Assembly: GCA_026066175.1 (NCBI GenBank)
Contig: GCA_026066175.1_4721.2
DNA from: a phage
Reading direction: 5' to 3' (one strand)
DNA: 64,000 nt
Part shown: one piece after another, positions 2,583 to 58,478 of the stretch
Numbering within the stretch: the stretch's first letter is position 1
Layout: each line of letters opens with the position of its first letter
Position numbers and translations under genes: made by a program
Notes under the pieces: model-generated
Seen by the model: only the letters and a program-made list of their open reading frames with translations
The model's database searches: none
Told to the model about the DNA's origin: nothing

Positions 2583-4193
2583 ATGGACCCAAAACAGATA
2601 GCCATTAAGATTATTACGTTACTGTTTCGTAATGCACAATTGAACCATCCCGATCCCAGTACGATCGAACATGTTAAATCCGTCTTAGATAAAATCGAAC
2701 CCCCGAAAAACCATCTCACCGTTGATGTGGATAGAGAGGTTTTCAACAACCTGATGAACACCATTCATTGGATGTTGGAACAACCGTTATCGGAACCTTT
2801 CGATAAACAACAGTTGCTACAAAGGATACGTTTAGATTGCCTGGAACAAAGCCACGTTTACGAAATTCTCGCCGACGGATTGTACGATATCGAAGACGAT
2901 GCTCATATCAGTAAGGTCTGTTCGCTTTACTACAATGAATTACGTAATCTGATTACCCGTCGTCGTGTATTTGAAACCTTTAAAAACACGTACATGGATA
3001 TCAGTAACGGCCGCCTTGGGGACAAAGAATTTTTCGACGCGATGGCGAATTTGAAACTATCGCTAGATACCATCGAAATGGATACTGAAAACCCCGAAGA
3101 AATGTCCTGTATGATTGACGGCTTCATCGCTGATAGTGAAGACGATATTGAAAAAGTCGAACGTATGTTCGTTAAGGCGATGGAGCGTAACAGTCCTGAA
3201 GGGGGATTTGTCACCGGCTGGCAGGGGTTTAATAAAATGTTGGGGTCGGTCGGCGTATTACGTCGTGGTACTCTAGGATTGATTGGCGCGATGCAACACC
3301 GTAATAAATCAGGGGTGTTATTAAAACTTTTCACCCACCTGGCGTTGTACAATAAACCCCATTTCTTTTTTCCGGAGCGCGCAAAGAAAGCCTTATTGAT
3401 TCATCTCTCAACAGAGAACGAAGTTGAAGAAAACACGCTTCAAATCTACAAGAACATGCGAGAACAGGAAACAGGTGAATATGTCGATATTCGTAAGATT
3501 GACCCACGTGAAGCTTCACGCTATGTACTGAACGTTTTCAATAATGCGGGGTTCTCTGTCTGCATGCGTCGTGTTGATGGAATGAGCTATAAACAACTTG
3601 CTAACCTTATCGACCATTTTGAACGTATGGGTTATGAAGTTATGGCTTTGTTCATCGACTATCTAAAAATGTTCTCGTCAGAAGGATTAGATAGGAATGG
3701 GCCTACGGGCGCTTGGCTGCAAGAACTCTTCAACAAAGTACGTAACCTCTGTAGCGTTAAACGTATTTTAGGTATGACCGTACACCAGTTGTCTTCTGAT
3801 GCGAAGATGCGGGCACGTGATGGTAACGATGAAGAATTTGTTGACCAAGTCGCCGGTTTAAGTTACTGGGATGGATGTAAAGGGATTGACCGTGAGATTG
3901 ACCTTGAGGTAATTGTTGATATCGTTAAGGAACCTGGCAAACGTCAAAGCTGGCAGGTCTTTGCGCTAGGGAAAGACCGTCAACCGGATAACGGCTCAAC
4001 AAAACCTGAAGATAAACATTTTGCGATGCCGTTCCAAACCATCGGGATGCTTCCTGACGATTACGGTAAGAAAGCGGTGTATTGCCGCAAGGTTGGCGGA
4101 CAACCGGTCTCTGAAGGAGGCAAAGGTCCGTGGAACAAGTTTGATGAACATGCCGCACCGAGTAATGAACTACAATTTGATTTAGAATTCTAA
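2583..4193 (+). CDS. putative DnaB-like (SF4, RecA-fold) helicase homolog with deviant Walker A
   Basis: ATG at 2583 with AAAGGA SD (the listed 2499 start is GTG and would overlap the divergent gene). Motif order as in DnaB C-terminal domain: LIGAMQHRNKSG (P-loop-like, Asn in place of the conserved Gly), MALFIDYLKMF (Walker B / H2), TVHQLSSDAKMR (H3-like), GIDREIDLEVIV (H4-like). Confidence 0.6.
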   Translation: MDPKQIAIKIITLLFRNAQLNHPDPSTIEHVKSVLDKIEPPKNHLTVDVDREVFNNLMNTIHWMLEQPLSEPFDKQQLLQRIRLDCLEQSHVYEILADGLYDIEDDAHISKVCSLYYNELRNLITRRRVFETFKNTYMDISNGRLGDKEFFDAMANLKLSLDTIEMDTENPEEMSCMIDGFIADSEDDIEKVERMFVKAMERNSPEGGFVTGWQGFNKMLGSVGVLRRGTLGLIGAMQHRNKSGVLLKLFTHLALYNKPHFFFPERAKKALLIHLSTENEVEENTLQIYKNMREQETGEYVDIRKIDPREASRYVLNVFNNAGFSVCMRRVDGMSYKQLANLIDHFERMGYEVMALFIDYLKMFSSEGLDRNGPTGAWLQELFNKVRNLCSVKRILGMTVHQLSSDAKMRARDGNDEEFVDQVAGLSYWDGCKGIDREIDLEVIVDIVKEPGKRQSWQVFALGKDRQPDNGSTKPEDKHFAMPFQTIGMLPDDYGKKAVYCRKVGGQPVSEGGKGPWNKFDEHAAPSNELQFDLEF

Positions 4194-4218
4194 AACGCAA
4201 AAAAAAAATCGTACGGTT

Positions 4219-4250
4219 CCCTCCTCCAACCCGGAAGGGAAGGAGGAGGG
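4219..4250. terminator. conserved palindromic hairpin CCCTCCTCC-AACCCGGAAGGGAA-GGAGGAGGG between convergent genes
   Basis: 9-bp GC stem, internal AA/AA, CCC/GGG, GGAA loop; an A10 run at 4199-4208 gives a U-tract for the minus-strand transcript. Confidence 0.6.
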
Positions 4251-4267
4251 TTATGACCGTTATGGTG

Positions 4268-4594
4268 TTAACTTATCGTCATGAATTCCGTAGGTGAGAA
4301 TTTCCAACCGTTTTCATTGAGAAGCGTGTTAAGTTTCGCTGCAACGATAAGCCATGCGTGCATGGCTGTCACATCGTATTGGCGATTAACACGGCGTTGG
4401 TTTTCGATATCGATTTGCTCCCGTTCGGTGATGTTTGGGTAGAGCGCGACGGCGCTGGGCTTCCCTAACGCATCACTCATTACCGCCTGACATTCACTGA
4501 TGATGTTATTGAGATGATAATTGTAAACCGTTCCACGCATAACACGATGACGGCATTCAATAATAGCGTCGTAAATAATTTCTCTTGTTGTCAT
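4268..4594 (-). CDS. hypothetical protein (108 aa)
   Basis: ORF in the minus-strand block, start 6 nt after the upstream stop. Confidence 0.55.
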   Translation of the reverse strand: MTTREIIYDAIIECRHRVMRGTVYNYHLNNIISECQAVMSDALGKPSAVALYPNITEREQIDIENQRRVNRQYDVTAMHAWLIVAAKLNTLLNENGWKFSPTEFMTIS

Positions 4595-4600
4595 GATCGA

Positions 4601-5002
4601 TTAAAACACACGTTCGTTTTTAGCACGGGCATCCATAACCAAATCGTAGATACCAGCTGTTCGTAAACATTCTTCGTAATAACGGTGCGTACCTTCCTCC
4701 GCCATCCACGATAACCCACGACTATCGGCAACAATAACCAGTTTGTTATTGTTGAATGCGCATACCACACGGTAAGTCGCATTGTTGTTTGGATCACGTG
4801 TAATCAGTTCGTAAACACCATTAACCGGTTTACTGAATTCACCGTTCAGCGGAATAAGTTCCGTTGTACCTTCAGCAAACGTTACATTGATTGATGCTGG
4901 CTCTTTAGCAATGACGGTGTATTCCACGTTGTGTTCTTTACTGGTCATGATACCGAAATAAGAACTTACTGGAGAACGTGGTACACTAAGAATATTAAAC
5001 AT
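4601..5002 (-). CDS. hypothetical protein (133 aa)
   Basis: ATG start; same operon block. Confidence 0.6.
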   Translation of the reverse strand: MFNILSVPRSPVSSYFGIMTSKEHNVEYTVIAKEPASINVTFAEGTTELIPLNGEFSKPVNGVYELITRDPNNNATYRVVCAFNNNKLVIVADSRGLSWMAEEGTHRYYEECLRTAGIYDLVMDARAKNERVF

Positions 5003-5065
5003 GAATGTTGTCCTCTTAATTGGATATAGATTGTTGGTATGTATTTGAATAAGGTTGGTTTACTT

Positions 5066-5635
5066 TTAGACGATGAGCGTCCAGGTGGTCAGTACACCGC
5101 TTGCGAATTCAAGCTTAAGACGTTTACCAATAAGCTGTTGTTGGATCATCTTTTCCGTGATCCGACGATCGTGTTGAACGGCTTTATCGAATGCCTCTTT
5201 TGCTTCGGCTTGATAAAAGTTCGTTTCTTCGTTCTCGTCGATATCTTCGAATGCATCATCGTCGATATCAGCAAGTTTTACACGGCCGTTTTCATCGGGT
5301 TGTTCGGCCGGTTCGTTGTCGTAAGGCGTGTCTTTTGTCGGTGCGACACGGTGCTGTAGTTCAACCTGGGTTAGCATCACTTCCATCTCACCGTCGATAG
5401 GGATGATGTCATCAGCACTACCGTTTTCGGTTAGCTCTCGACTTTCCAGTAACGTCGTAGTAACAGTGAACACCTCCTCGACAGGAACCTCATCATCGTC
5501 GATGGTGTTAACCGTACCGCTGGTCACTTCGGCAACAACCATCAAATCGAATGCGTGAGGGTCGCCGGGCATTTTGATCCCAGGAAGTTTGTTGAGATAC
5601 CAAGGATCAAGAATCATGATTTCGGGATTAAACAT
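5066..5635 (-). CDS. hypothetical acidic protein (189 aa)
   Basis: ATG start; D/E-rich product. Confidence 0.65.
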   Translation of the reverse strand: MFNPEIMILDPWYLNKLPGIKMPGDPHAFDLMVVAEVTSGTVNTIDDDEVPVEEVFTVTTTLLESRELTENGSADDIIPIDGEMEVMLTQVELQHRVAPTKDTPYDNEPAEQPDENGRVKLADIDDDAFEDIDENEETNFYQAEAKEAFDKAVQHDRRITEKMIQQQLIGKRLKLEFASGVLTTWTLIV

Positions 5636-5710
5636 CGTATTTACCTTTTTATGTTAGGTGGGTTGCGGATGGAAGAATCAATGCATAGTCTGATTTAAGT
5701 TTGTTAAGAC

Positions 5711-6544
5711 TTACTTAGCTTTCGGATTATACGGACTAACATGTTGTTGCATTCGTTGGATTGTTTCGTAGTACGGGTTATAATGAGTGAACATATTGTT
5801 GTATGGATGGTAGCCGTAAAGCGCATTTTGCCTTGCCGGTGAGAAACCTTTTTGAGAAGGACGATTTGAATTTACTGCGAGCACGTAGTAAACCAAATTT
5901 TGATGGTCGAATGTTCCTTCGTTTTTGAAGGTGTCAGCATAGGCGCTTACCGCAGGAGCAAGTCTATCACCATCGGTTGTAATGATCGTACCATCCGGGT
6001 AAACTTCTCGAACGATACACCATGTTCCGATGAGAACATCTTCGGGTGTCTTATTACTGTATCCGACTGTAACGGTAAGGTAAGTATCGAATCCTCCTGA
6101 GCGCTGCGGATGTCGATAAATTGGGCCAGTCGTTTCTGCTTTATCGGTTACGGTTTTTTCGTAAGGACACTTCTTGATTGCTTTGATGTAAATATCGGGA
6201 ATCTCTAATACCGCCTTATCAGGATGAATTCTAAAATGATTCTTGAGTAAGCCCAAAAGGTTGGTTGCTACCACGTCGTGAGGTAGTACCCAATAACTGG
6301 TAGGGGAGTCATCGCCGTCTCTCTTGGAGAAGATGACTGCCTTGTTATCGTCGTCTGGTAGACTGAAGAAAACGATTGACTCAATAGGCATAGCCAGCTC
6401 ACCACAACAGGGGTCAGCGGATAACACCCAATTGTATTTGTTGTCCGTTTCGTATAAATGTTCTGTTCTGTCGATACTACGATCCTTCAATTGGATGTAG
6501 CGTTCACGTTGTTTCTTGGTTAATTTACGGTAGATAGTGGTCAT
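5711..6544 (-). CDS. hypothetical protein, paralog family of 5711/6630/7431 genes (277 aa)
   Basis: N-terminus MTTIYRKL; shares VREVYPDGTIITT and PIYRHP...YLTVT segments with the 6630 gene product. Confidence 0.75.
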   Translation of the reverse strand: MTTIYRKLTKKQRERYIQLKDRSIDRTEHLYETDNKYNWVLSADPCCGELAMPIESIVFFSLPDDDNKAVIFSKRDGDDSPTSYWVLPHDVVATNLLGLLKNHFRIHPDKAVLEIPDIYIKAIKKCPYEKTVTDKAETTGPIYRHPQRSGGFDTYLTVTVGYSNKTPEDVLIGTWCIVREVYPDGTIITTDGDRLAPAVSAYADTFKNEGTFDHQNLVYYVLAVNSNRPSQKGFSPARQNALYGYHPYNNMFTHYNPYYETIQRMQQHVSPYNPKAK

Positions 6545-6588
6545 GTTAAGCTCCTTGATTACGGTAAGGATGATTTCGGTTTTGTGAT

Positions 6589-6617
6589 GATGGTAGGACC
6601 ACTTTGTTTAGGATCCT
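6589..6617 (-). terminator. imperfect hairpin GGTAGGACC...GGATCCTACC between paralog genes
   Basis: 7-9 bp stem in the intergenic gap. Confidence 0.3.
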
Positions 6618-6629
6618 ACCAGTACGGGA

Positions 6630-7403
6630 TTATTCATGATCAGTGTAGAAATGGTGAGGATAGCCGGAGTACGATCCTGCGTTACCGGCTATGGATTCTT
6701 TCTGGGAATCGACGACGAGCGCGTAGAACTGTCGGGAATTTGTTAACGTTGAGAAATAAGAGGAAAGGACTTTTTCGTTCAACGCATCGCACGGTAGACA
6801 GGTACGCCCACAGAACGTCGTAATACGGCCATCCGGATAGATCTCACGGATCATACGCCATTCACCGATATCAACCGGCGATGGCGCTGCTACACCACCT
6901 GTTATCGTTAAATAACGATCATACGTGGTATGACATTCTGGATGTACGTAAATTGGCTTATTGGCCTCAACTTCTTCAGGAGCATAGCGTCGACCGAGAA
7001 GTTCAATAACCTCCAGATAGATTGTAGGCAGATCGCAAAGAACCCCTTCCTCTTTACGTTTCTTCGTGATTCGAGGACGAACCTCATTGATAACGTAGGC
7101 GAGTTCATTCAGCGCTTCTTGCGCTGGTAGCACGAATAAACGGTCCGGTTTGTCGGACAAGTCTTCATTTACGTAAACGTAACAAACATCGTCTTTAGGC
7201 GCGTAGAAGAAGCGAGAGACCTTAAAGGTTTCCGTAGTACGATAACCGAGACGCGTTTGGTCCTGCACCAGAGAAAATATCCAGCGACGTCCTTCGTCCT
7301 GTTCAATGATATCATTGAACATCTTTGTTTGATCAGGAAGTTGATATTCTTCCTGTAATTTAGCAAGTGCTTCATTATCCAGTTTGGTGTAAACATCAGT
7401 CAT
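6630..7403 (-). CDS. hypothetical protein, paralog of 5711 gene product (257 aa)
   Basis: N-terminus MTDVYTKL; IREIYPDGRITT and PIYVHPECHTTYDRYLTITGG align to the paralog; Cys cluster CGRTCLPC. Confidence 0.75.
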   Translation of the reverse strand: MTDVYTKLDNEALAKLQEEYQLPDQTKMFNDIIEQDEGRRWIFSLVQDQTRLGYRTTETFKVSRFFYAPKDDVCYVYVNEDLSDKPDRLFVLPAQEALNELAYVINEVRPRITKKRKEEGVLCDLPTIYLEVIELLGRRYAPEEVEANKPIYVHPECHTTYDRYLTITGGVAAPSPVDIGEWRMIREIYPDGRITTFCGRTCLPCDALNEKVLSSYFSTLTNSRQFYALVVDSQKESIAGNAGSYSGYPHHFYTDHE

Positions 7404-7430
7404 GATAGTATCCTCGATTAGTAAGGTTGG

Positions 7431-7835
7431 CTAGTCTATCTTAAGCCAGATTGATGGTAAATGGAAATAGACACCGTCGTCTATTTGTTTTTGTGTTAAC
7501 GGGGTTGGAAGTTTAGTGATGATGTTGTCGATCGATTCCTCAATGTCACTTGTTAGAACGTCGATGTGGTAATAGCGAGCGATGCGTCCGTTACGTTCTA
7601 GCCAAAACAGACGAACGAAATCACTATTTTTATTAATCGCATTCATAAACACGATTTGATGAAGCAGGATCATTCTTGACGAGGGGTAATCGTCAGGACG
7701 CGGAGTCATCACCAGTTCCCAACGTTTCCGTCGCACGCCTTTTTTGAATTGACTCGTTACATTTGAACCACTTTTACCTAAGTTTATAACAAATTGCTTT
7801 AGACGATACGGTGTGTTTCTGTAAATATCGGTCAT
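7431..7835 (-). CDS. hypothetical protein, short member of the same family (134 aa)
   Basis: N-terminus MTDIYRNT; first gene after the TATATTAC repeat. Confidence 0.65.
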   Translation of the reverse strand: MTDIYRNTPYRLKQFVINLGKSGSNVTSQFKKGVRRKRWELVMTPRPDDYPSSRMILLHQIVFMNAINKNSDFVRLFWLERNGRIARYYHIDVLTSDIEESIDNIITKLPTPLTQKQIDDGVYFHLPSIWLKID

Positions 7836-7854
7836 TGATTATAGCTCCAGGTTA

Positions 7855-7886
7855 TTATCACTAAGGTAATATAGTCGTGAAATAAA
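7855..7886 (-). promoter_or_regulatory. 32-nt promoter-like repeat; minus strand reads TTTATTTCACGACTATATTACCTTAGTGATAA
   Basis: Identical 32-mer recurs at 48100-48131; contains TATATTAC; lies 20-50 nt upstream of the 7835 start. Confidence 0.45.
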
Positions 7887-7919
7887 CTGGAGTAATAGAA
7901 ATAATAAGACGGCATAAGA

Positions 7920-7950
7920 CCCTCTCCCAACCCGGAAGGGAAGGGAGAGG
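7920..7950 (-). terminator. conserved palindromic hairpin, variant CCCTCTCCC...GGGAGAGG
   Basis: Same architecture as 4219-4250 with compensatory stem changes; follows the stop of the 7956 gene. Confidence 0.55.
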
Positions 7951-7955
7951 AAGTA

Positions 7956-9323
7956 TTAAACGGTTGGACGAACGGTGTTGTCTTTTTCCGGTGCAAGCCA
8001 GAGTGTGACGGTACCGTGGCAGGTCCATTGGGGTTCACGTACAGAAGAACCCGCCATCGTAACAGCGCAATCGGTACGCATAACAACGCCGTAAGCTTCG
8101 CAAAGGTTATTGTCTTGCATCCAAACAACTTTAGCAGGCATGCCAGGATACAGTAAATCCATGTTGGCATGTTCCCATACCAACTGCATCGTTCGACCGC
8201 GTAACCCAGCAGTATTACTTAATTCCCGCCAACGGTTATCCGTTACCCGGCCCATCCCTTTTGCTACCTTCACGTTATCACTACGTTCTTCCGTCACATA
8301 CTCGCTTACGTTCACGGTACGACTGATGATCGTATCACCGCCCTTCGATAACGTCATTCCCTGGCTCATCTGACTCGCTGAAACAAAGCGTCCACCCGCA
8401 TTACCTAACAATGAAGCTGCGTTGCTGATATCGCTGACCGACGCACCTCGTGTACACGCGATCTCCACGTATTTGTCACGATTGATCCAGGTATTTTCCA
8501 TGCCGGGAAACATATCGGCCGGATAATTGTAAAAAATCGCCGTACGTCGACCGTCGGAGAAACGGGTTTCGTCATACAGAGGGTAGATATACAAATACGG
8601 TGATTGGTAATAGCAACCAACGTCCGCTGAATAAATACCGACCTGGTTCTGGATCTTATCAACAAGATCCATCGCGTTGGTACCATGAGGAAGAATCAAT
8701 AACTTGAACAAATCATTGTTATTCGGTGCGACAATATCAACACCCTGCATTTTGAAGCCGGTATCCGCTTCAACAGCAGAAAGGATTTTACTGAATTCGA
8801 GTCGCAGTACATCCAGAACTTTCGATCCAGTATAGTTCTCACCGGTTTCTGACTGCATGAAGCTTTCAAGAACAGGATCGAACAACTGGAATTGAAGATC
8901 GACCATCTGCTCGTAATCTTTCTTCGCAGAATCGGTTGCAGTACGTTCATCGGTTGCGGACATACGACTGTCTACGGTGGTTAAACAAACTGCCCGATAG
9001 ACATAAGCTTGTGCGGCATCGTCTACGGTTTGGCGTTGTCCACGCATCAGACTGTACGCCTGCACGATGACGCGCATTTTAAGTTGTTGCTGGTACGGTA
9101 AAATGTATTTTCCGTAACTGCCCGGAGGGAACTTTACAGAGATATAAAGTTCATCTCCTGCGTTACGTTCATAGTCTCGATACGTGTGGACTTGAGTCAC
9201 TAAAGGAACAGACACCGTCATTGACGGCGTGATTAATTCCGCGGTGACTTTATACGCAACAGCAACTGCTTCCTGCGCAAATGTACCGATATACCGTCCT
9301 AACGGCGTCTGTTTGTAATCCAT
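7956..9323 (-). CDS. hypothetical protein (455 aa), possibly virion-associated
   Basis: Long ORF, ATG start. Confidence 0.8.
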   Translation of the reverse strand: MDYKQTPLGRYIGTFAQEAVAVAYKVTAELITPSMTVSVPLVTQVHTYRDYERNAGDELYISVKFPPGSYGKYILPYQQQLKMRVIVQAYSLMRGQRQTVDDAAQAYVYRAVCLTTVDSRMSATDERTATDSAKKDYEQMVDLQFQLFDPVLESFMQSETGENYTGSKVLDVLRLEFSKILSAVEADTGFKMQGVDIVAPNNNDLFKLLILPHGTNAMDLVDKIQNQVGIYSADVGCYYQSPYLYIYPLYDETRFSDGRRTAIFYNYPADMFPGMENTWINRDKYVEIACTRGASVSDISNAASLLGNAGGRFVSASQMSQGMTLSKGGDTIISRTVNVSEYVTEERSDNVKVAKGMGRVTDNRWRELSNTAGLRGRTMQLVWEHANMDLLYPGMPAKVVWMQDNNLCEAYGVVMRTDCAVTMAGSSVREPQWTCHGTVTLWLAPEKDNTVRPTV

Positions 9324-9325
9324 GT

Positions 9326-9931
9326 TTAACGACCCCGTTGCTGTTGTTGAATGATGAATTCTTCGATCTTCGTACCACGGAATTCGCTGTGACGAACCGC
9401 TTGCAGTTGCTCTTCAACGGTTGGGCCTGCATTGAGACCACCACGACGTGCACGGTGGATACCGATTTTACGTCGCTGACCGATTTCACGTAAACGTGAG
9501 GTTAACCCGCTCATTTCCGTCGGATCTTTAATACGTCCACGTGCAACGTTCCATAGACCACCCATGAACTCTTCGAGGATACGACTTGCTTCAAGCGAAG
9601 GCGCACGTGCGTTAGGATCGTTTTCAAGATTGTACTTTACATACTCCGTGTGCTCCAGAAGAAGCGTGAACATTTTCATCGCGTTGACATCAGGATTAGC
9701 GATACGCATCGGAACACCACGAGAGTGCTTTTCAGCGGCTTGTGGGATGGTAAGCTGTGCCGGTACCTCTTCGTTCATCGTCATATCGTCGATTTCTGCA
9801 ACCCCTGACGAGTAGACACCACTGACTTCGTTGGTATAGTTATCCACCATGAATTTACGGGGGATCCAGAATTCGAATTTACGTTCGAAAAGACGTTTGG
9901 TTGGGGTATCTTTAACGTGTTGTAGACTCAT
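9326..9931 (-). CDS. hypothetical protein (201 aa)
   Basis: ATG start; tightly packed with neighbours. Confidence 0.7.
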   Translation of the reverse strand: MSLQHVKDTPTKRLFERKFEFWIPRKFMVDNYTNEVSGVYSSGVAEIDDMTMNEEVPAQLTIPQAAEKHSRGVPMRIANPDVNAMKMFTLLLEHTEYVKYNLENDPNARAPSLEASRILEEFMGGLWNVARGRIKDPTEMSGLTSRLREIGQRRKIGIHRARRGGLNAGPTVEEQLQAVRHSEFRGTKIEEFIIQQQQRGR

Positions 9932-11244
9932 GGTTCAATAGCTCCTGCTCGTAACAGCATAATAACGAACGGTGTGAAATAATAACGATCTAACGGAGAA
10001 AGCAGTGGTATAGCGTCAACCATCTGCTTCAGTGCCGGATGACTGATTGCCTTTTCATCAATCATGTCGCGCACCATACTTTCAATAATCGTCATTGGTG
10101 CTTGGTTGCGATAGAACGCCTCGGTGAAAACGTAGTACGGGTCATCGGCGACCGACGGGAATAACGGAATGCCGTCATACTCCATTGAGGTAAGGTTGGT
10201 CACCAATGGGTTCGTCGGTGGTGTGCTTTCAGGAACAGCCAACGTTTTACCTACATCCTCACCCAGCGACGTGGTCGCAGGCCATATACAGAACCGTGCG
10301 CCACTAAAACGAATTCCACCCGCCGCCGGATACTGATAGAAACGCTTTGTTGACAACAGCGTGAATTTCACCGTCAACCGCGCCTCGTCTTCCCGACGTC
10401 CGTCCATTACCCATTCAAAGACAGAAATCGCATTCGCTTCCTGGCTGTCGTCTACGTTAAGACGTCCGAAGTTCCATGAAGGTTTTCCTTCAAGCGACGA
10501 CCATAATTTCGTAAACGCGTTAACACACCAGGGATCGTAGGTTGCAGCATCTTGACCAGGAACAAGCAGTGTGTTGAGTTCACGGCTGTAGAATTCATGG
10601 TAATACGCGTGACAAAGTCCCAGTGCACGACGGAGATAATCGTACTTACGATTGTATTTCTCCGTTGCCATTACGGGATGTTTTCCGTGCTTTAACTGGT
10701 CTTGGTCGTATAGCGTATCCTCAACGATTTTTGCTTCCAGTTCGATAAGCTGTTTTTCGTCAAGAATACGTTGGAAGGAAATATCGCATTCGTAAGCCGG
10801 TGCTAAGCTGATGTTCTTCGGCGTGATTCGGGTGATCGTGTACACCGCGATACGATGATCGAGACCGGAGATTAACAGCATGTTACCTAAAAGAGGAACC
10901 GATACCGCCGGAAGTATACACGTACCCTCTGATTGAAAACGTGCGGTCCCGTTGTCGTACGACGGCGTCAATGATGACATTAACTTGATAGGGTAATGTC
11001 TGATGCGACGGTACTGCTGTTCAGCGATGTCTCGGTTAGCTTGAAAACTGCTTTGTTCATCATCGCGACCGAGAATCTGTTCGTAATAATCACATTCTAC
11101 GGAATAACCGGATGCGTAATTCACTAACCCGATTTGACTATTGTATTGCTCATCTACCACCGCAGAACGATAAACATCGTCGCGAGCCTTCGCGGGTTGT
11201 TGGGGGTTGATGATGGGTTTCGCGGGCTTCTTAGCGAGCGCCAT
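9928..11244 (-). CDS. hypothetical protein (438 aa)
   Basis: ATG start; 4-nt overlap with the downstream gene. Confidence 0.8.
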   Translation of the reverse strand: MALAKKPAKPIINPQQPAKARDDVYRSAVVDEQYNSQIGLVNYASGYSVECDYYEQILGRDDEQSSFQANRDIAEQQYRRIRHYPIKLMSSLTPSYDNGTARFQSEGTCILPAVSVPLLGNMLLISGLDHRIAVYTITRITPKNISLAPAYECDISFQRILDEKQLIELEAKIVEDTLYDQDQLKHGKHPVMATEKYNRKYDYLRRALGLCHAYYHEFYSRELNTLLVPGQDAATYDPWCVNAFTKLWSSLEGKPSWNFGRLNVDDSQEANAISVFEWVMDGRREDEARLTVKFTLLSTKRFYQYPAAGGIRFSGARFCIWPATTSLGEDVGKTLAVPESTPPTNPLVTNLTSMEYDGIPLFPSVADDPYYVFTEAFYRNQAPMTIIESMVRDMIDEKAISHPALKQMVDAIPLLSPLDRYYFTPFVIMLLRAGAIEP

Positions 11245-38617: not shown

Positions 38618-40117
38618 ATGAGCGAACAAGAACAAAAACTCAAGAAGAAACTGCTCGGTATTCAATGTCGACACATCAGTTATAACGAAGCCAACGATGG
38701 CAGCAAGAACGATCTCATGATTGCAAAAGAGATCATGTTCTTCGATGACAACACACAAGCCACCAACCTGCGGTTCTTTGAAAACCACAAACGTCCGTTT
38801 TGGGTTACAGTTGAAAGCAAACGTAAGAACAAATATAAAAAGGAAAGCGAGAAGCTCTCAAACGTACGTCGTTATGAGGTACGCCAAAGCGAACTGGTTG
38901 AGAAAATCAGTTCGGTGCTTTATAAACGACGTGCTGACGATAACACCCGTTTACAACAGCTTGCGCGGAGTCCTTACCTCTATGGAACGGACGTTAGCGC
39001 CAGCTGCTATTTAAAAACCCAGTACAATACAAAATGGCCGGAATACGTTGATAAACTGCCTGCTTCTATCGCATGTTTCGATATCGAAACCGACGTTGTC
39101 CACGGGCACGGTAAGATCGTTTGTATGTCTATTACAATGGGCTACAACGCGATTCTTTGTTACACCCAGGACTTCGTTGGTCATATTCCGAATGCGATTG
39201 AGAAAACCCGTGAGAAGATTCGTTATTACCTGGCCGACCGTTTAAACACCAAAGAGGATCCTCACGCCTTTGAAAAATACCATTACGATATTCGCATTGT
39301 AGAAAGCCCTGCGCAAGCGGTGATTCAATGCATGCAGAAGGTGCACGAATGGCAGCCGGATTATCTCCTTGGCTGGAACATCGCGTTCGATATTCCGCGT
39401 ATGCTCCAGGCATTGCAGGACGAAGGTTATCGTCCCGAGGATGTTTTCTCCGATCCTCGCGTACCACCGAAATACCGTTTAGCACGCTGGGTACCACCTA
39501 AAACCGATAAGGTATCGGCATCAGGCCGTAAAACCAACCTTACCCTTGAGCAAACCTGGCCAATGTTTTATACGATGGCCACGTATCAGGTTATGGATGC
39601 GATGTGTGGTTATAAGTTCGTTCGTTTAGGAAGACCGGATGAAGGACGCTACTCACTCGATGCGGTGTTAGAGCGAAATAAATGCCATACGAAATTAAAA
39701 GCGATCCCAGGTACCGAAGGGTTCACGGAGCTCGCCTGGCACGAAGAGATGCAAACGAACCATCAAATCGACTACGGTGTATATAACCTTTGGGATAACC
39801 AAGGCATCGAGGCGTTGGACCAGAAAACAAAAGACTATTCGATGACCATCCCTATCCGTTTAGCAGCGTCGGATTTGAAAGATTTCAGTTCCAACCCTAA
39901 ACGTATCTGTGATAAACTTTTCTTCGTTTATCTCAACCGTGGGGAAGTCATGGGATGTACTGCTGATGACATGACGCAAGAGGAGGATAAATGGGTGATT
40001 TCACGTGCAGGGCATATCGTGACCTTGCCGTGCGATCTCATGGCGGATAACGGCATCCATCTCTTCTGGGATATGCCAAATCTAAGAAGCTATATTCGAT
40101 TATTTGTTGCGGATTAA
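38618..40117 (+). CDS. family-B DNA polymerase N-terminal/3-prime-5-prime exonuclease domain protein (499 aa)
   Basis: DEDDy motifs in PolB-like order and spacing: Exo I ACFDIETD (residues about 152-158), Exo II LLGWNIAFDIPRML (about 251-264), Exo III YSLDAV (about 345-350). No polymerase motifs A/B/C. Confidence 0.75.
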   Translation: MSEQEQKLKKKLLGIQCRHISYNEANDGSKNDLMIAKEIMFFDDNTQATNLRFFENHKRPFWVTVESKRKNKYKKESEKLSNVRRYEVRQSELVEKISSVLYKRRADDNTRLQQLARSPYLYGTDVSASCYLKTQYNTKWPEYVDKLPASIACFDIETDVVHGHGKIVCMSITMGYNAILCYTQDFVGHIPNAIEKTREKIRYYLADRLNTKEDPHAFEKYHYDIRIVESPAQAVIQCMQKVHEWQPDYLLGWNIAFDIPRMLQALQDEGYRPEDVFSDPRVPPKYRLARWVPPKTDKVSASGRKTNLTLEQTWPMFYTMATYQVMDAMCGYKFVRLGRPDEGRYSLDAVLERNKCHTKLKAIPGTEGFTELAWHEEMQTNHQIDYGVYNLWDNQGIEALDQKTKDYSMTIPIRLAASDLKDFSSNPKRICDKLFFVYLNRGEVMGCTADDMTQEEDKWVISRAGHIVTLPCDLMADNGIHLFWDMPNLRSYIRLFVAD

Positions 40118-40210
40118 CCTTCGTTCTGTAAAAGTTTACCGATGTATGGAAATTTCTGTGAGATACCAAAGGTACTCGATAAGTTTAGGAATTTCTGGAC
40201 GGAGGTAATT

Positions 40211-41347
40211 ATGTTGGAACATCTTGAGTGTTTGGACAATGAATACTTAAATTTCACCAATCGTCGTTATCGTATCTTCGAGGACGGTACCCTCTACGAT
40301 TATAAAGAGAATCGCAAAGTACCCGTCATCATCGAAGACAACAACTCTTACGTTATCATTGACTGGTATCGTGGAGTGGGTAAATACGAGCTGGGAATGA
40401 TCATACTTACGGCATTTGATCGAATCCATATCCCTAACTATCTCTACGACGAAATCGAATCTTTGTTTATTGACAACGATCCGACGAATTTCTCGTATAG
40501 TAACCACATCTATCGTTTCCGTAACGGTCCGTTAGCGGTGGAAGGGTATCCGGGGTACTACTACATCCCGTTTGCCACGTACTATGCGTTAAATGAACAA
40601 GGTGAATGTTTAAGTCTCTTGTCGGGGGAAGGTATAACGTGGACAATGACGCCACAGAACGGCACACGACGTCCAGGCTATCGATACAGAAAAGTAACAC
40701 CCGATAGTGGGTTCACAGCCCAACTGTATCGTCATCGTGCGTTGATGTTAACGTTCCGTCGTTATGATGCGAGCGTTGTAGAAATGACCGTTAATCACAA
40801 GAACGGGATTAAAGGCGATGATTGGCTGGATAACCTTGAATGGGCAACCTACAAGGAAAACAACAATCATGCGCGTATCAACGGCTTATGCGACGGTAAA
40901 GCAAAACCCGTTAAGATCTTTGATTACGTTCGTCACACCGAGCGTCAATTCAAAAGCATCGCTGAAGCAGAACGCGCTTATCCACACGTTGCAAAAGGAC
41001 GTTTCAAATGGTGGGTTGAGAATCCGCCGAAACGCATTCCAGAATGCAACCTGTACATTAAACATGCGTTCGATAACACCCCATGGCCAGAATGGAAACT
41101 GGGTGACGATCGTCGTATTGAGGATGTATCAGGTATTCCTATCATTGCACTGAACATGGTAACCGGCGAGAAACGAGTGTATCCGTCGGTTACTGCTGCA
41201 GGTAAAGATACGAAAACAAGTTGGATAACCGTAAGACGTCATTGCGATAGGCGTGTTGTTCCTGCGAAACAAGCCTGGTGCTTCCGTTATGTTGATGATG
41301 TCAAGAATATGCCGGAGTTAACCTCCCCACCAACAATCGAACAGTAA
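40211..41347 (+). mobile_element. HNH homing endonuclease ORF (379 aa from ATG 40211)
   Basis: GGAGGT SD 7 nt upstream; HNH core LYRHRALMLTF...VNHKNGIKGDDWLDNLEWATYKENNNHA (nt about 40763-40886). Confidence 0.8.
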
Positions 41348-51781: not shown

Positions 51782-52255
51782 ATGCCAGTTTCATCCAAAC
51801 CAAGAAAGAAATCCACAGCAAAACCGAAAGCTCAAGAAACAACAGCAATTCGTTGGGACGAGTTACGCGAACCTATCGAGAATTGCGAATTGTTGCTGAG
51901 TACCTTAGGTGCAGCGATCTATCAAGCCACGCAACCTTGCCGCTTACGATTAACCCAAAACAAACGTGATGAGTTCGTTGCGTTATCAACCAGCACGAAT
52001 AAAGATCTAACGGAATTACAAACAGAACTGACGACAATCAAGAACTCGATCACGCCGATGTATGGCAAAGAAGTGGATGAACAAAGTATTCTGTTGCAAT
52101 ACAACTACGGGATGTCGTTAATGAACATTCTGGAACGCGCATCCGATATTTTGCGTCCTGATGTTGCACGTCTAAGTCAATTGCGTGTTGAAGGGATGGA
52201 AAACCAAATCAGATTCTCTAACAGTGTTAAATCCCAAGGAGCCGCTGAAGCATGA
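51782..52255 (+). CDS. hypothetical protein with basic N-terminus (157 aa)
   Basis: ATG with upstream GGAG; N-terminal KPRKKSTAKPK. Confidence 0.65.
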   Translation: MPVSSKPRKKSTAKPKAQETTAIRWDELREPIENCELLLSTLGAAIYQATQPCRLRLTQNKRDEFVALSTSTNKDLTELQTELTTIKNSITPMYGKEVDEQSILLQYNYGMSLMNILERASDILRPDVARLSQLRVEGMENQIRFSNSVKSQGAAEA

Positions 52256-53892
52256 GCGAACAAGAAAAAGAAGTCATTAAAGATCAGGCTGAAGACGTAG
52301 CGCGTTCAGAAAGCAATGCTTACGTTTCGCATTCTGAGTCTGTTGGTTCAGAAGAACCTCAAGCATCTGAAGCCATGTACGAGGAAGCCCCAGCGCATCC
52401 GCCACTGATTGATTTCTCAAAAGCAACCATACGGTTCCAGTGTGACGATATTCGTCCGAAGAATCCGAAGAAAACGAAACGTCAACCGTTGATGTTACCG
52501 CTCTATTCACCACGCGTACATACAGCGTTTTATCAGCAGTATATCGCGGATGCGTTGGATACCGTCCAGGACATCATTGCAAACCGTCAACAACCGACCG
52601 AAGAACAATTTGATCGATTCAATAAAGCCGCGATTCAATCGTTCTCTGACGGACAGTATCAGCCGAATGGCGATGCTCAGGATCGTGCATTAGAACGTAA
52701 GGGGAGTCAATGGACGAACGTACCGGTTGACGCTTCCGGCGTTGGACGTGTTATACCGGGTATCCCACAACCGAATCATATCCCCGATGATGTTGAAGCA
52801 CCGCTGACTGGATCGGATGCGATTTATTTCGCTATTCGTAATACGAAATCAGGTGCTCCGGCGGTGATGCCGTTATGGCATAGCGGAATCAAACTGCAAT
52901 TCAACCCACCATCGAATGAACGTGTTGCGATCATGCATGAGCGTATCGCACGCGATAAAATTCTGGGCGGTCGTGATAGTGCTGGATTCTTGTTTTCGGC
53001 AACGTCGATTATCACCATGAAACACGCGATCGAATTAGCTCTCGAATGCTGTTACATGGCCAACGTTCCGAATCTGGATATCCAGCGTTTAAAAGACATC
53101 ATCCCCGTTACAGATGTTCCAGCGCTCTTGTTGAACGTGTTGGTGACCATGTACCCCTACGGCTATCCGTACGTACAGACCTGTTACCAGAATCCAGATA
53201 CCTGTGATTACCGTGTTGAAGATATCGTCAGTTTTGCGAAGCTTTATCAAGTTGACAACAGTGCGATTACAAAACGTATGCGTCAGATCATGACCGAAGG
53301 TCCGGTCATGACGGATGAGCTTTTGCGCGAATACGCGAACGAGCTGGGTGAAACCAATTCCCGTACGTTGGATCTGTCTGATAACGGTTCGGTGATCATT
53401 GAACTTGAAGTCCCGAAAATCTCCCGTCATATCGCCATGGGTGAACGCTGGTTAAGCGATACCTTAGAAGATCTCCGTGATATTCTTTCTCGTCCATCGA
53501 TGACGGAAGAAGAACGTGATCGCGTTATCCGTGAACGTCAGTTCTACAGCTGGATGCGTCAGTACGATGCGTGGATCAAATCCATGCATGTGTCAGTAAA
53601 CGGTACCATGCGTCGTGTAAGCGAAGCAGACACACCGGTCGTATTAGCGCAGTTATCCCGCGACAGCGACTTACGCGAACGTTACATTGACGGGTTGATG
53701 CAATTCATCGGCGATTCAACCATCGCGCTTGCAGCGATGCCTGCCTGGAAGTGTCCGAAGTGTAACGAGGATATTGCGGAGAATCTTCGCGATCAGAAAT
53801 ACTACGACTTGATTGCATTGGATGTACCCCAGCTTTTTTTTACCCTAAACTCCGTCCAATCGCTGAGGGAGGGGATGGACGCGGTATTCTAA
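52252..53892 (+). CDS. hypothetical protein (546 aa)
   Basis: ATG with AAGGAG SD; ATGA overlap with the upstream gene. Confidence 0.8.
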   Translation: MSEQEKEVIKDQAEDVARSESNAYVSHSESVGSEEPQASEAMYEEAPAHPPLIDFSKATIRFQCDDIRPKNPKKTKRQPLMLPLYSPRVHTAFYQQYIADALDTVQDIIANRQQPTEEQFDRFNKAAIQSFSDGQYQPNGDAQDRALERKGSQWTNVPVDASGVGRVIPGIPQPNHIPDDVEAPLTGSDAIYFAIRNTKSGAPAVMPLWHSGIKLQFNPPSNERVAIMHERIARDKILGGRDSAGFLFSATSIITMKHAIELALECCYMANVPNLDIQRLKDIIPVTDVPALLLNVLVTMYPYGYPYVQTCYQNPDTCDYRVEDIVSFAKLYQVDNSAITKRMRQIMTEGPVMTDELLREYANELGETNSRTLDLSDNGSVIIELEVPKISRHIAMGERWLSDTLEDLRDILSRPSMTEEERDRVIRERQFYSWMRQYDAWIKSMHVSVNGTMRRVSEADTPVVLAQLSRDSDLRERYIDGLMQFIGDSTIALAAMPAWKCPKCNEDIAENLRDQKYYDLIALDVPQLFFTLNSVQSLREGMDAVF

Positions 53893-53909
53893 TCGATCCG
53901 CGATACGGG

Positions 53910-54314
53910 TTGCATGATGGACAGCTTCTTCGTCAGGACGAGAAGATCTGGCAATTGTTGTTAGCGCGTAAAGGCGATGGGAGCATGAAGCTGAACATCG
54001 AAATGGGTATTGCTTACGATACCATGTTCGGCATGTATGATCGCGTTAGTGATTGGACACCATTGAAATGGGTGGCTCAGCATCCTGCCGAAGACCCATG
54101 GGATCGATTAGGTATTAAACCCCTAATCGAAGACTATGCGCGATTCGGCATCAAGGAGTTCATGACGCTCGACGCGTTTTTAAAAGCCCCCTATCCCTAT
54201 GCGCAAACGGTGCTCAAAATCGCACAAGACGAATTACGGAAACGTAGTGCGGTATTGGACGATGATGAGGACAAATTACGACGGGAAGAAGAACGTCTAC
54301 GAAACGGAAGATAA
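53910..54314 (+). CDS. hypothetical protein (134 aa), start uncertain
   Basis: Listed start is TTG; first in-frame ATG is 25 codons in. Confidence 0.45.
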   Translation: MHDGQLLRQDEKIWQLLLARKGDGSMKLNIEMGIAYDTMFGMYDRVSDWTPLKWVAQHPAEDPWDRLGIKPLIEDYARFGIKEFMTLDAFLKAPYPYAQTVLKIAQDELRKRSAVLDDDEDKLRREEERLRNGR

Positions 54315-54315
54315 C

Positions 54316-54825
54316 ATGGCAAGATTTACCAGTTTGATTGGGTTGGATATTTGGGAAACGCCTGCTGATGTTCGGGTTATTCCTGTTAACACGGTTGGTG
54401 TGATGGGACGTGGTTTAGCTAAACAAGCCGCGGAACGTGTGCCCGGTCTTCTTGAAGCGTACCGTAATCAGTGTCGTGATGGATTTAAGGTGGGTGAAGT
54501 TGCAACGTATCAAGCTGGGGAAAATGACCATCTCACGTACGTCCTGTTTCCATCGAAAGCGGATTGGCGTGAAAGAACCCGTCGTGAGTATATCATCGAT
54601 GGTCTGTTGGCGTTGAAGACCTGGTTATTAGAGACCCAGTTTGAAAGAGACTGCTTCTCATACCGGAATCTTGCCGAACCCTTGATTGTTGCTATCCCAC
54701 CAGTTGGTTCAGGCTGCGGTAATATCGGTTCTGGACAAACCGAAACAATCCAACCACAATGGGTACGCGCACAAATCAAACAGTATCTTGCCACCGTGCC
54801 AAACGTTCATTTCTACTTGTTCTAA
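54316..54825 (+). CDS. putative macrodomain protein, TARG1/DarG-like (169 aa)
   Basis: ATG at 54316 (the listed 54199 start would overlap the upstream gene). Motifs in order: IPVNTVGVMGRGLAKQ, PSKADW, VAIPPVGSGCGNIGSG. Confidence 0.7.
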   Translation: MARFTSLIGLDIWETPADVRVIPVNTVGVMGRGLAKQAAERVPGLLEAYRNQCRDGFKVGEVATYQAGENDHLTYVLFPSKADWRERTRREYIIDGLLALKTWLLETQFERDCFSYRNLAEPLIVAIPPVGSGCGNIGSGQTETIQPQWVRAQIKQYLATVPNVHFYLF

Positions 54826-54841
54826 TGCAAAGGTAACATAA

Positions 54842-54873
54842 CCCTCCTCCAACCCGGAAGGGAAGGAGGAGGG
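54842..54873. terminator. conserved palindromic hairpin between convergent genes
   Basis: CCCTCCTCCAACCCGGAAGGGAAGGAGGAGGG with the same flanks as 30153-30184. Confidence 0.6.
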
Positions 54874-54890
54874 AATATGCTGTTATGCTA

Positions 54891-55265
54891 TTAATGTTCG
54901 TTCCAGATGGCATCTTCCGGTGGAACAATAGGATCTTTCTTTGGCATTGATGGCACTTCATGGCGATGCTTACGGAACTGCCTATCAATAACCTCACGAA
55001 GCCGGTACGCATCAACCCATGTTGACTTGTTGAAGAGTTCCAAGGTTACCGTCAATCGTGTTCTCGTCATCGAATAGCTTTTCTTTGCAATGAGATCGGG
55101 ATAATTCAGTTGAGCGAACCATGCACGGATTTGTTCTTCCGTAAACGCGATGCTGTAATAACTGAGTTTACCGTCATTGAAATCATGCGCATGGGTGTAG
55201 CGTCCAGCGTAACGCCAGACAAGATGCACATTCAGATCTATCCATGGTGGGGTGGTATCAGCCAT
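54891..55265 (-). CDS. hypothetical protein (124 aa)
   Basis: ATG start. Confidence 0.6.
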   Translation of the reverse strand: MADTTPPWIDLNVHLVWRYAGRYTHAHDFNDGKLSYYSIAFTEEQIRAWFAQLNYPDLIAKKSYSMTRTRLTVTLELFNKSTWVDAYRLREVIDRQFRKHRHEVPSMPKKDPIVPPEDAIWNEH

Positions 55266-55865: not shown

Positions 55866-58478
55866 TTATGCGTCTGGTGTAAAATCAAAAGGAATGTCCA
55901 TACGAATGATATCATAACGTTTTCCTAGGAAATAGAACTCTTCGGGAACCTGACCGGGAATGATGCTATCACCGATGAACTGCGGATACGCCCAGATGTA
56001 CTGAGTGAGTCCTTCGAACATATCCAGGTTATTTGCGTGGTTACCCATGATGCGTTTCCAGAGTTCGCGTTTATACGGTGTTTTAACATCGAACCCATAA
56101 AGCGGTGCAAGATCTTCACCAGGAACAAATCCCAGGTAATAGTGAATCTGGTTAACTGGGAAACCAAGCGTATCTCGCGGAATGGTGATCGCTTGCTCAG
56201 CCTTGGTGACATGTGTCTCAATAATCCAGTCATAGCACTCTGAATAGAACCGATCGAATTTCTCTGGATTATACCACGCTTTGGGAAGATTGAGTTTCTC
56301 CGTGAATGCATTCGACATGATCGTCGGCAAGAACGGAAGAACACCGGTTTTGATCTGCGTGTATTTCGATTTTACCCGGTTAACCAGATTCCAGCAACTG
56401 TATCCTAACTGTTCGTTACAAAACTCAACGTAGAGATCGTAGTCGCCACCGGATAACGGGTTGTTAATATCACCGATGTCTGCGGCATATTTGTCAGGAT
56501 ATTGGTTATTGAAAGCCAGTTTGGTTTGGTAGTCGTAGATACACGGTTTGTTGTTCGCCGTGTTGATCCACCACCAGGGTTCACCTACTTGTACACAAAT
56601 GTCCTGGACATGAGGATAGATGATATCAGCAAATGCTGTTAACACATCCCCTAACCACGCCATCGCATATTGGTTACACGGAGACAGCAACCAAGACGGC
56701 GGCGTGTATCCGGTTGCTGCGATATTCCCTTCCCAATCTTGCTGTGCCCACTCGAACGGACACGCTGTACTCATCAATTCGTAACTTAAACTGATGGTTA
56801 CAGAGAAATGGTGTTTTGCAGCGAGTGCGGCGAAAGCTTCATGCCATGCAATACAGGGCGGATTTAATACATCCGTGGTGTTCACCAGTAGCTTACCCGC
56901 ACTCGGCGTCCAGACGGTGTCGTAGAAATGCGACATTCCAACATAGTGTACTAATTCATCCTGATATCCCGCATACACCAGGTTCTCGAACACGCGTTCT
57001 GGCGTGATGTTATAATGGTCATCATAAGCGGTTATCGCACGAAGTTCGTGTGGTGCGCAGTGGTGACGATTAACGGTCATTTCCTGATACACCCCATCGA
57101 TAGGAAGAATCTCGATGGTTAAACCGAGGTCGATCGGTGTTTCCAGATAGGTCGTTTCAGTCGCATCTTCCTTATAATGTCGAGAACTCATGCTGAACAT
57201 CAACGACGTTACCGATTCAAGTTCGATGGGCTCGTCAGCATAGAACCCCGCCATTGCGTCATTAAAATCGATCGTCACGGTCGCGCTTGTACCGTCTTCA
57301 GAGACGTCTGTCGCATATCGGGTTAATGAGATATACTGACGGCTATCGTCTTTGTGTACGACGGTTAAAACCGGCGGGTTTTCGGTATCCGCAAAGTTAC
57401 GCTGATCGCCGGTAAACGTGACCTTTGCTTTAAAGATCAAACCGAGTAACGACGTCATGGGATCATACGCGATACAACCGTGATCCAGCGTATCCGTTGT
57501 CCGCCATTCTACCCCGACCAACCCGTTAGCGGTATGACATCGCATATACGCGTTAAGAACCATGTCTTCACTGACGACCGCGAAGTTCTCTGTTGATTGA
57601 CCGTTGATAATCCAATACATCGGTTGCCAAAGATTGCGAGTACCTTTTGCATAGCGGTAGGTTGGTGCACCTTTGGGGTTGCCATTATTAAGATGAAATA
57701 CGGCAGTACCTTGATAATGGTCGTTCGTATTAATCGGAACACTGTAAGCATCACCGAGATCCGTACGTTCCACCTTCGTAATGGCTGCGTTTTCAAACAA
57801 CCCACGTAGCGCTGGTAAACCGATATCTGCAGGTGCGTTTTCACGACGTATCGCATCGGCAATACGATGAGCTAAGGCTGGGTAAATGACTTCACCTTGT
57901 TGCAGGTTCGCAAGCCCCGCAAAGCGATCGGGATCGATACCGGCAATTAACAACTCGATATCACCTTTCGTTCTATCGTCGTGAAGATATTTCAGTCCGG
58001 TAAGGTCGAGATGTTGAATAAGCGACAATAGGTTGTATTTACGGTTTTCGACGGTTAGTTCGAGATCGCCTGCCCAGACCAGACTTTCGTCATCGGCTGT
58101 TAAAGTAACGGTTTGTCGACCTGTGATGGATGTCGTCGTTATCTTATTTAATTGCTCTTGCAGGAAGTCTGTTGCAAGGTCAAAGGCAACGCCGTAGCGA
58201 TCGGCGACAGTTTGCATGATTTCACGTAACTGGGTATCTTCTTCAATGATAACCTTGATGGGTATTCCCAAGAACGCTTTAGCGAGGTCCCGTTTAACCG
58301 TCGAGACAAACACGGATTTGTAATATCGGCTTCCATCTTTCCCTTTAAAAAGAATGGAGGTTGTTTCGGGTGACGATAGAACACGTGCAAATTCAACATC
58401 GTCGAAGGTAAGAGAAAGTCCGTTTTTCTCGTTGGTCAATCTTAGTATTTCATTCTGCGCGGTTTCATGTAACTTCAT
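55866..58478 (-). CDS. virion protein with fibre-adaptor-like N-terminal module (870 aa)
   Basis: N-terminal 150 aa paralogous to the 63370-63897 product (KRDLAKAFLGIPIKVIIEE vs RRDIAKAFLGIPIKIVLES; LVWAGDLELTVEN vs MVWRGQLDLTVTN). Confidence 0.85.
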   Translation of the reverse strand: MKLHETAQNEILRLTNEKNGLSLTFDDVEFARVLSSPETTSILFKGKDGSRYYKSVFVSTVKRDLAKAFLGIPIKVIIEEDTQLREIMQTVADRYGVAFDLATDFLQEQLNKITTTSITGRQTVTLTADDESLVWAGDLELTVENRKYNLLSLIQHLDLTGLKYLHDDRTKGDIELLIAGIDPDRFAGLANLQQGEVIYPALAHRIADAIRRENAPADIGLPALRGLFENAAITKVERTDLGDAYSVPINTNDHYQGTAVFHLNNGNPKGAPTYRYAKGTRNLWQPMYWIINGQSTENFAVVSEDMVLNAYMRCHTANGLVGVEWRTTDTLDHGCIAYDPMTSLLGLIFKAKVTFTGDQRNFADTENPPVLTVVHKDDSRQYISLTRYATDVSEDGTSATVTIDFNDAMAGFYADEPIELESVTSLMFSMSSRHYKEDATETTYLETPIDLGLTIEILPIDGVYQEMTVNRHHCAPHELRAITAYDDHYNITPERVFENLVYAGYQDELVHYVGMSHFYDTVWTPSAGKLLVNTTDVLNPPCIAWHEAFAALAAKHHFSVTISLSYELMSTACPFEWAQQDWEGNIAATGYTPPSWLLSPCNQYAMAWLGDVLTAFADIIYPHVQDICVQVGEPWWWINTANNKPCIYDYQTKLAFNNQYPDKYAADIGDINNPLSGGDYDLYVEFCNEQLGYSCWNLVNRVKSKYTQIKTGVLPFLPTIMSNAFTEKLNLPKAWYNPEKFDRFYSECYDWIIETHVTKAEQAITIPRDTLGFPVNQIHYYLGFVPGEDLAPLYGFDVKTPYKRELWKRIMGNHANNLDMFEGLTQYIWAYPQFIGDSIIPGQVPEEFYFLGKRYDIIRMDIPFDFTPDA

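Follow-up and report, generated by a model that had tools for sequence, protein, structure and literature searches.

The window, by which we mean the whole stretch of 64,000 nucleotides of phage DNA that was analysed, carries at positions 54316 to 54825 a gene for a stand-alone macrodomain protein of the DarG2 type. Our preferred reading, to which we assign a probability of about 80%, is that this gene encodes an orphan DarG2-like macrodomain of the AdfM family in a Goslar-type jumbo phage, and that its product erases from phage DNA the ADP-ribose attached by DarT2 toxins. Phages are stopped by DarTG systems via the ADP-ribosylation of their DNA, a defence that they can answer, among other means, with orphan antitoxin-like erasers. 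The AdfM proteins of chimalliviruses further illustrate that the protein "nucleus" of these phages is an incomplete shield, which needs a dedicated repair enzyme inside.

Proteins of this kind are already known: AdfM has been described, and the gene of the closest relative is annotated and named. Roughly half of chimalliviruses encode a macrodomain homolog, and that of phiKZ, gp104, received the name AdfM (anti-DarT factor macro) (Morgan et al., Cell Rep 2026, PMC13309987). Purified phiKZ AdfM strips off the ADP-ribose which the DarT2 of Pseudomonas aeruginosa sets on the TNTC motif, and AdfM rescues DarT2 toxicity. DarTG2 restricts phages without AdfM: their DNA is modified, they replicate less and packaging is blocked (PMC13309987). 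The AdfM proteins of Asesino (gp217), phiKZ and PhiPA3 (gp108) localize to the phage nucleus (PMC13309987). The original prediction, made from the letters of the DNA, had proposed that the product reverses host-imposed ADP-ribosylation of DNA, and precisely this role has been demonstrated for the phiKZ ortholog gp104; Goslar gp83 is included among the AdfM proteins in the alignment of Figure 1B, the legend of which is the only place in that study where Goslar is mentioned (PMC13309987). The window provides a second, approximately 10%-diverged member of the Goslar clade of E. coli/Salmonella type. The finding is correct but ordinary and opens no new question, and its uses lie in the constrained positions, which mark the catalytic core, in the varying positions, which mark a candidate import surface, and in a correction of the start of Goslar gp083.

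The gene and its genomic neighbourhood

At the nucleotide level, the window is approximately 89% (88.6%) identical to Escherichia phage Goslar, and Goslarvirus is classed in the Chimalliviridae, the nucleus-forming jumbo phages. PhiKZ-type internal head proteins, a gp91-like protein and a divergent DnaB are also encoded in the window. The annotation of Goslar gp083 reads "macro domain-containing protein ... similar to ORF104 phiKZ", and phiKZ gp104 aligns with the product described here over the full length (32% identity, 168 columns, E 3e-26). By tblastn, the gene was detected in 190 phage records, each genome with a single copy; most are of phiKZ-like Pseudomonas phages, Erwinia and Salmonella jumbo phages and phiEco32-like phages. 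The gene and the features that surround it are as follows:

54316..54825, + strand, stop codon included: coding sequence of the 169-aa stand-alone DarG2-type macrodomain, ortholog of Goslar gp83 and phiKZ gp104 (AdfM), based on the open reading frame, homology, DarG HMMs and AF2/Foldseek
54265-54315 (8290-8340 in the Goslar locus L001): extra 17-codon stretch of the longer annotation, overlapping the upstream gene
51782-52255, 52252-53892 and about 53985-54314 (span 51782..54314), + strand: three upstream co-oriented genes, function unassigned, based on PHROGs
54842..54873, no strand assigned: GC-rich hairpin, putative bidirectional terminator that separates the macro gene from the convergent gene on the minus strand at 54891-55265

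The stand-alone macrodomain reading frame that had been predicted is real: it opens with an ATG at 54316, closes with a stop codon ending at 54825, and contains all three of the motifs quoted for it in their places. The stop codon of the upstream gene occupies 54312-54314, and the macro ATG follows after one further base. A longer in-frame reading frame starting at 54199 runs into the upstream gene. The start at 54316 is backed by the alignment of the N-terminus (MARF...) with that of phiKZ gp104 (MAEF...), the 169-aa product is the gene call in four independent other assemblies, and, on our reading of the alignment between the window and Goslar, most of the changes just 5' of the ATG are silent in the upstream reading frame. 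RefSeq Goslar gp083 (186 aa) and the database protein P0001 both begin 17 codons further upstream, overlapping the upstream gene. The longer starts, at 54199 as well as in the 186-aa RefSeq protein, are probably over-extended, and the N-terminal phiKZ gp104 alignment, together with the 169-aa calls elsewhere, suggests that the annotated start of Goslar gp083 is too long.

Between the gene and its Goslar ortholog, nucleotide identity is 83% and amino-acid identity 90% (89.9%), and the resulting dN/dS of 0.06 reveals strong purifying selection. Judged by this ratio, the gene is clearly functional.

The macro gene is the last in a four-gene block on the plus strand, the products of which comprise 157, 546, about 109 and 169 aa, and the same block recurs with the same order and sizes in Goslar, in the locus L006 and in L005, a 48%-identical relative. 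The three upstream genes showed no DarG, DarT or Pfam domain and matched only PHROGs of unknown function. Their products were also compared by BLASTP with phiKZ gp100, gp101 and gp103, and nothing significant was found. Synteny with phiKZ was rejected, the neighbourhood being conserved only within the Goslar clade, and the gene thereby differs from the assayed AdfM gene, as its neighbours have no detectable similarity to phiKZ gp100-103. Downstream, the 65-nt stretch 54826-54890, which contains the hairpin, has a predicted folding energy of -28.7 kcal/mol (z = -4.9; 0/200 shuffles as good). The site gives a terminator-like match on the minus strand, and the homologous site in Goslar is annotated as a terminator.

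A DarG-type macrodomain without the DarT-binding domain

A profile search had been recommended with the original prediction, and both Macro and DarG models were matched. The Pfam Macro model (PF01661) passes marginally, at 23.0 bits where the cut-off is 22 (residues 23-138, E 8e-5), and PHROG 335 ("phosphatase") is matched at E 3.5e-17. The PADLOC DarG model gives E 1.6e-21 and is covered only at profile positions 8-143 of 329; NCBIfam antitoxin_DarG (NF048014) gives E 2e-22 and 80 bits, with coverage only of positions 7-146 of 338. In a sequence search of the PDB, the DarG macrodomain of Thermus aquaticus (5M31/5M3E, E 4.9e-13) came first, accompanied by M. tuberculosis DarG (5M3I). A profile built from 17 homologs scored DarG proteins at 150.8, 146.8 and 123.9 bits in hmmsearch, as against 53 for human TARG1. 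A word-indexed search for homologs yielded just 17 proteins, and it was an exhaustive HMMER search which revealed the breadth of the family (2817 library relatives, E<=1e-3). Among the nearest cellular relatives are proteins above the full DarG cut-off of NCBIfam, namely P0108 (361 bits) and P0150 (327 bits).

The AlphaFold2 model is confident (pLDDT 87.5, pTM 0.85), and superposition of the modelled fold, which had likewise been proposed as a check, fits DarG best and TARG1 next. In Foldseek against the PDB, rank 1 was held by T. aquaticus DarG (TaqDarG) with bound ADP-ribose (TM 0.79/0.88, rmsd 1.8 A), followed by apo TaqDarG, M. tuberculosis DarG and a Thermosipho DarTG fusion, and only then by TARG1; the top structures by identifier are 5M3E, 5M31 and 5M3I. 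Altogether, 183 PDB fold matches were obtained at E<=1e-3, and the best of those listed are macrodomains, together with designed proteins on that scaffold, so that the model shows the macrodomain fold, a mixed beta-sheet between layers of helices. The marginal Pfam Macro assignment is corroborated by this predicted structure. On the PADLOC and NCBIfam DarG models, the protein scores 75-80 bits, whereas phiKZ AdfM reaches 133-138 bits; by these scores, the Goslar-clade protein stands further from DarG than phiKZ AdfM does.

The active site, which alignments place within three segments, is retained throughout the family:

54379..54426, + strand: first ADP-ribose-binding loop, residues 22-37, IPVNTVGVMGRGLAKQ
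54550..54567, + strand: PSKADW, residues 79-84, the catalytic-Lys segment
54688..54735, + strand: second (diphosphate-binding) loop, residues 125-140, VAIPPVGSGCGNIGSG

In the alignments, N25 (codon 54388-54390) corresponds to TaqDarG N22 and phiKZ AdfM N23, K81 (codon 54556-54558) to TaqDarG K80, phiKZ K78 and TARG1 K84, and W84 to TaqDarG W83 and phiKZ W81, while G131, G133 and G135 correspond to TaqDarG G117, G119 and G121. Conservation was counted over 159 aligned family members drawn from the exhaustive search. The position of K81 is Lys in all 159 relatives and that of N25 is Asn in all 158 that align there; W84 is matched by Trp in 150 and by Tyr in the remaining 9. In the first loop, G31 and G33 are present in 159/159, and in the second, G131, G133 and G135 in 156, 148 and 155 of the 159, respectively. 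The supposition that the catalytic Lys and the two Gly loops are conserved among homologs was thus borne out, these positions being essentially invariant among the approximately 159 relatives. Mutational work on TaqDarG attests to their importance, as K80A renders the enzyme inactive, N22A has the next strongest effect and G119E impairs it; W83 has been proposed to stack on the thymine, and TARG1 has Ala at this position (Jankevicius et al. 2016, PMC5179494). In phiKZ AdfM, N23A lowers activity (PMC13309987).

The protein had been assigned to a joint TARG1/DarG type, and of this assignment the DarG2-like part holds and the TARG1-like part does not. TARG1 mainly de-ADP-ribosylates glutamates of proteins. 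TARG1/OARD1 (4J5S) belongs to the same macrodomain subclass, shares the position of the catalytic Lys (K84) and constitutes the second-best structural group, but it scores 53 bits against 150 for DarG and lacks the Asn and Trp of DarG. Membership in the TARG1 group, which is defined by the K84 and D125 dyad, was considered and rejected: the Lys is kept, the profile scores are much lower, and in the profile alignment the second catalytic residue of TARG1, D125, falls on an invariant Gly, G135 of the present protein. Since the equivalents of N22, K80 and W83 are conserved and the D125 position is Gly, the protein is of the DarG type and not of the TARG1 type.

With the DarG2 of DarTG2 systems (T. 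aquaticus, M. tuberculosis), the protein shares the fold of the N-terminal macrodomain, the N22/K80/W83 residues and the two Gly loops. It differs in that it is encoded by a phage, has no DarT adjacent to it and lacks the C-terminal domain by which DarG binds DarT; the NCBIfam model is matched in its N-terminal half alone, with 80 bits against a cut-off of 250 bits. Classification as the DarTG antitoxin equivalog (NF048014) was rejected on the grounds of the score below cut-off, the absent C-terminal domain and the lack of an adjacent DarT gene. A split DarG was also considered, and PADLOC, Pfam and PHROG searches found no neighbour that supplies a C-terminal DarT-binding domain or a DarT. Among the 56 ORFs of the window, a Pfam scan (E<=1e-3) detected exactly one Macro domain and no ADP-ribosyltransferase, DarT (DUF4433), NADAR or sirtuin domain. 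Owing to the lack of the C-terminal domain and of any DarT, ADP-ribosyltransferase or NADAR among these ORFs, the product is an orphan antitoxin-like enzyme.

Two related proteins of other origin came to light in the searches. P0040, a metagenomic representative of 318 aa, has a DarG-type macrodomain (6-153) fused to a NADAR domain (167-303), and to judge from this architecture it could be a dual eraser for the ADP-ribosylation of thymidine by DarT2 and of guanosine by DarT1. The locus L007 (Citrobacter plasmid NZ_CP056352.1, 882-2577), on a small mobilizable ColRNAI plasmid, harbors a complete pair of DarT (DUF4433) and DarG (346 aa), and DarTG2 is thus plasmid-borne in Enterobacteriaceae. 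A nucleotide-level search with this darT-darG pair in 5,426 complete E. coli genomes gave no match, a result that does not speak against the presence of DarTG2 in E. coli.

Proposed mechanism and competing readings

Like the assayed AdfM, the product is a stand-alone, DarG2-like chimallivirus macrodomain of approximately 160-170 aa with the Asn/Lys pair in place (N25/K81 here, N23/K78 in phiKZ), and it is 90% identical to Goslar gp83, a listed AdfM, although it has only 32% identity to the phiKZ protein that was assayed. It is by analogy with the latter that we infer the enzymatic activity, the substrate, the nuclear import and the protection against DarTG2 for the Goslar clade. In the proposed course of events, host DarT2, freed on infection, would ADP-ribosylate thymidines in single-stranded phage DNA. 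The macrodomain would probably be imported into the phage nucleus via the PicA pathway, as in the case of the phiKZ, PhiPA3 and Asesino proteins, and would act there on the phage genome. The two glycine loops would form the pocket for the ADP-ribose and hold its diphosphate, and N25 and W84 would position the modified thymidine. K81 may then serve as the nucleophile on the ribose C1'', such that the bond between thymidine and ribose is hydrolysed, ADP-ribose is released and the DNA is left unmodified again; on the restored DNA, replication and packaging could go on. Because the C-terminal domain of DarG is missing, DarT2 would be neutralised only by erasure of its product, not by binding of the toxin.

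Defence of this type exists in E. coli, which possesses DarTG2 systems that protect it against phages, coliphages among them (PMC7003065, PMC11825919). The strategy of a phage-borne "orphan antitoxin" or anti-DarT factor is shared with AdfN, an orphan NADAR protein, and with AdfA and AdfB (PMC11825919, PMC11481870). AdfN erases ADP-ribose from phage DNA and counters DarTG1 while being inactive on DarTG2 (PMC11825919); it differs from the present protein in its unrelated NADAR fold and in its target, the guanosine modified by DarT1. AdfB binds DarT and was not shown to erase the modification (PMC11481870).

An alternative that we regard as improbable is that of a general ADP-ribose macrodomain, i.e. 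a Poa1p/YmdB-like ADP-ribose-1''-phosphate phosphatase, an O-acetyl-ADP-ribose deacetylase or a protein mono-ADP-ribosyl hydrolase. The targets of such an enzyme would be ADP-ribosylated proteins or RNA, or small molecules derived from ADP-ribose, and not DNA modified by DarT2; it might, for instance, blunt another defence based on NAD+ or ADP-ribose. Relatives are indeed labelled "phosphatase" (PHROG 335 and phage records) or "O-acetyl-ADP-ribose deacetylase", and the Goslar note refers to cd02901, a Poa1p-like family, but these labels stem from automatic annotation and not from tests. The fold search also gave significant matches to structures of Poa1p and TARG1; whether compared by sequence, profile or fold, however, DarG scores far above the families of TARG1, Poa1p and YmdB type. 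The insertions that adjoin the binding loop could change specificity, yet the DarG-specific equivalents of N22 and W83 are kept, the position of TARG1 D125 is Gly, and the assayed ortholog acts on DNA (PMC13309987).

Compared with the erasure of DarT2 marks, a role in the phage's own modification of its host appears very unlikely. The original prediction had mentioned the regulation of a phage ADP-ribosyltransferase, and the protein would in this case be an antidote or regulator for an enzyme like T4 Alt/Mod, limiting self-damage or timing the modification of host targets. Jumbo phages commonly carry ADP-ribosyltransferases and macrodomains (over 40% and 56%, respectively; PMC9503650), and the inspected sequence amounts to 64 kb of a genome of approximately 237 kb. 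This suggestion nevertheless found no footing in the window, as the 56 ORFs mentioned above contain no candidate transferase, nor do PADLOC, Pfam and PHROGs reveal one in the immediate neighbours; in addition, the deletion phenotype of the phiKZ ortholog is explained by host DarTG2 (PMC13309987). That the protein is an inactive reader or sponge of ADP-ribose, kept mainly as nuclear-import cargo or as a structural protein, is scarcely credible: some macrodomains merely bind ADP-ribose and the gene is located among virion and replication genes, but the positions at which DarG is inactivated (K80, N22 and G119), along with W83, are conserved under strong purifying selection.

Divergence of the Goslar clade and further observations

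Two insertions distinguish the Goslar clade from the assayed phiKZ protein, one at approximately 106-121, following a long helix (pLDDT ~68), and one at approximately 138-147 (pLDDT ~58). The latter, of about 10 residues, is modelled with low confidence; it immediately follows the diphosphate loop and is nearly confined to this clade, few of the aligned relatives having residues there. From Goslar gp83 the protein differs at 17 amino acids, all within residues 51-142 (window 54466-54741), with none in residues 1-50 or 143-169. For phiKZ gp104, import requires PicA and a species-specific central region (the middle third, aa 66-115; PMC11087766); it depends on a folded surface, is species-specific and is not readable from sequence (PMC11087766). 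Residues 51-142 overlap the region that sets import specificity in phiKZ and PhiPA3. It is conceivable, if doubtful, that the AdfM of the Goslar clade has functionally diverged from the phiKZ type, in which case the insertions and substitutions would represent an import surface particular to this lineage or a shift in substrate range. Such a shift could concern a TTT/TCT-specific DarT2 of E. coli, ADP-ribosylated RNA or another base.

Outside the macro gene, a number of minor observations were made. A copy with 89% identity, P0003, comes from an 809-bp contig assigned to Salmonella enterica serovar Muenchen, where it is recorded as a hypothetical protein; this suggests that Goslar-like phages, or their DNA, are present in Salmonella isolates. 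In the window itself, approximately 2 kb at ~5700-7850 are without a Goslar megablast counterpart, only 64% of the interval 4000-10000 being covered. This stretch is a variable accessory island and encompasses the following reading frames, none of which has a PHROG or Pfam match:

5711-6544, - strand: ORF of 277 aa
6630-7403, - strand: ORF of 257 aa
7431-7835, - strand: ORF of 134 aa

The minus-strand gene at 55866-58478 (870 aa) combines DUF7941 with the N-terminal and TIM-barrel domains of a "non-contractile tail sheath protein" (PF23844, PF23845; E 9e-85). Its homolog is "hypothetical" in Goslar, and a second DUF7941 protein is also encoded in the window. Finally, the plus-strand interval 38618-41347 contains an ORF with a DNA polymerase B exonuclease domain (per Goslar gp068), immediately followed by a NUMOD1/HNH_3 homing-endonuclease ORF. 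Another "polymerase" piece is annotated elsewhere in Goslar, and a mobile endonuclease may have split or invaded the polymerase gene.
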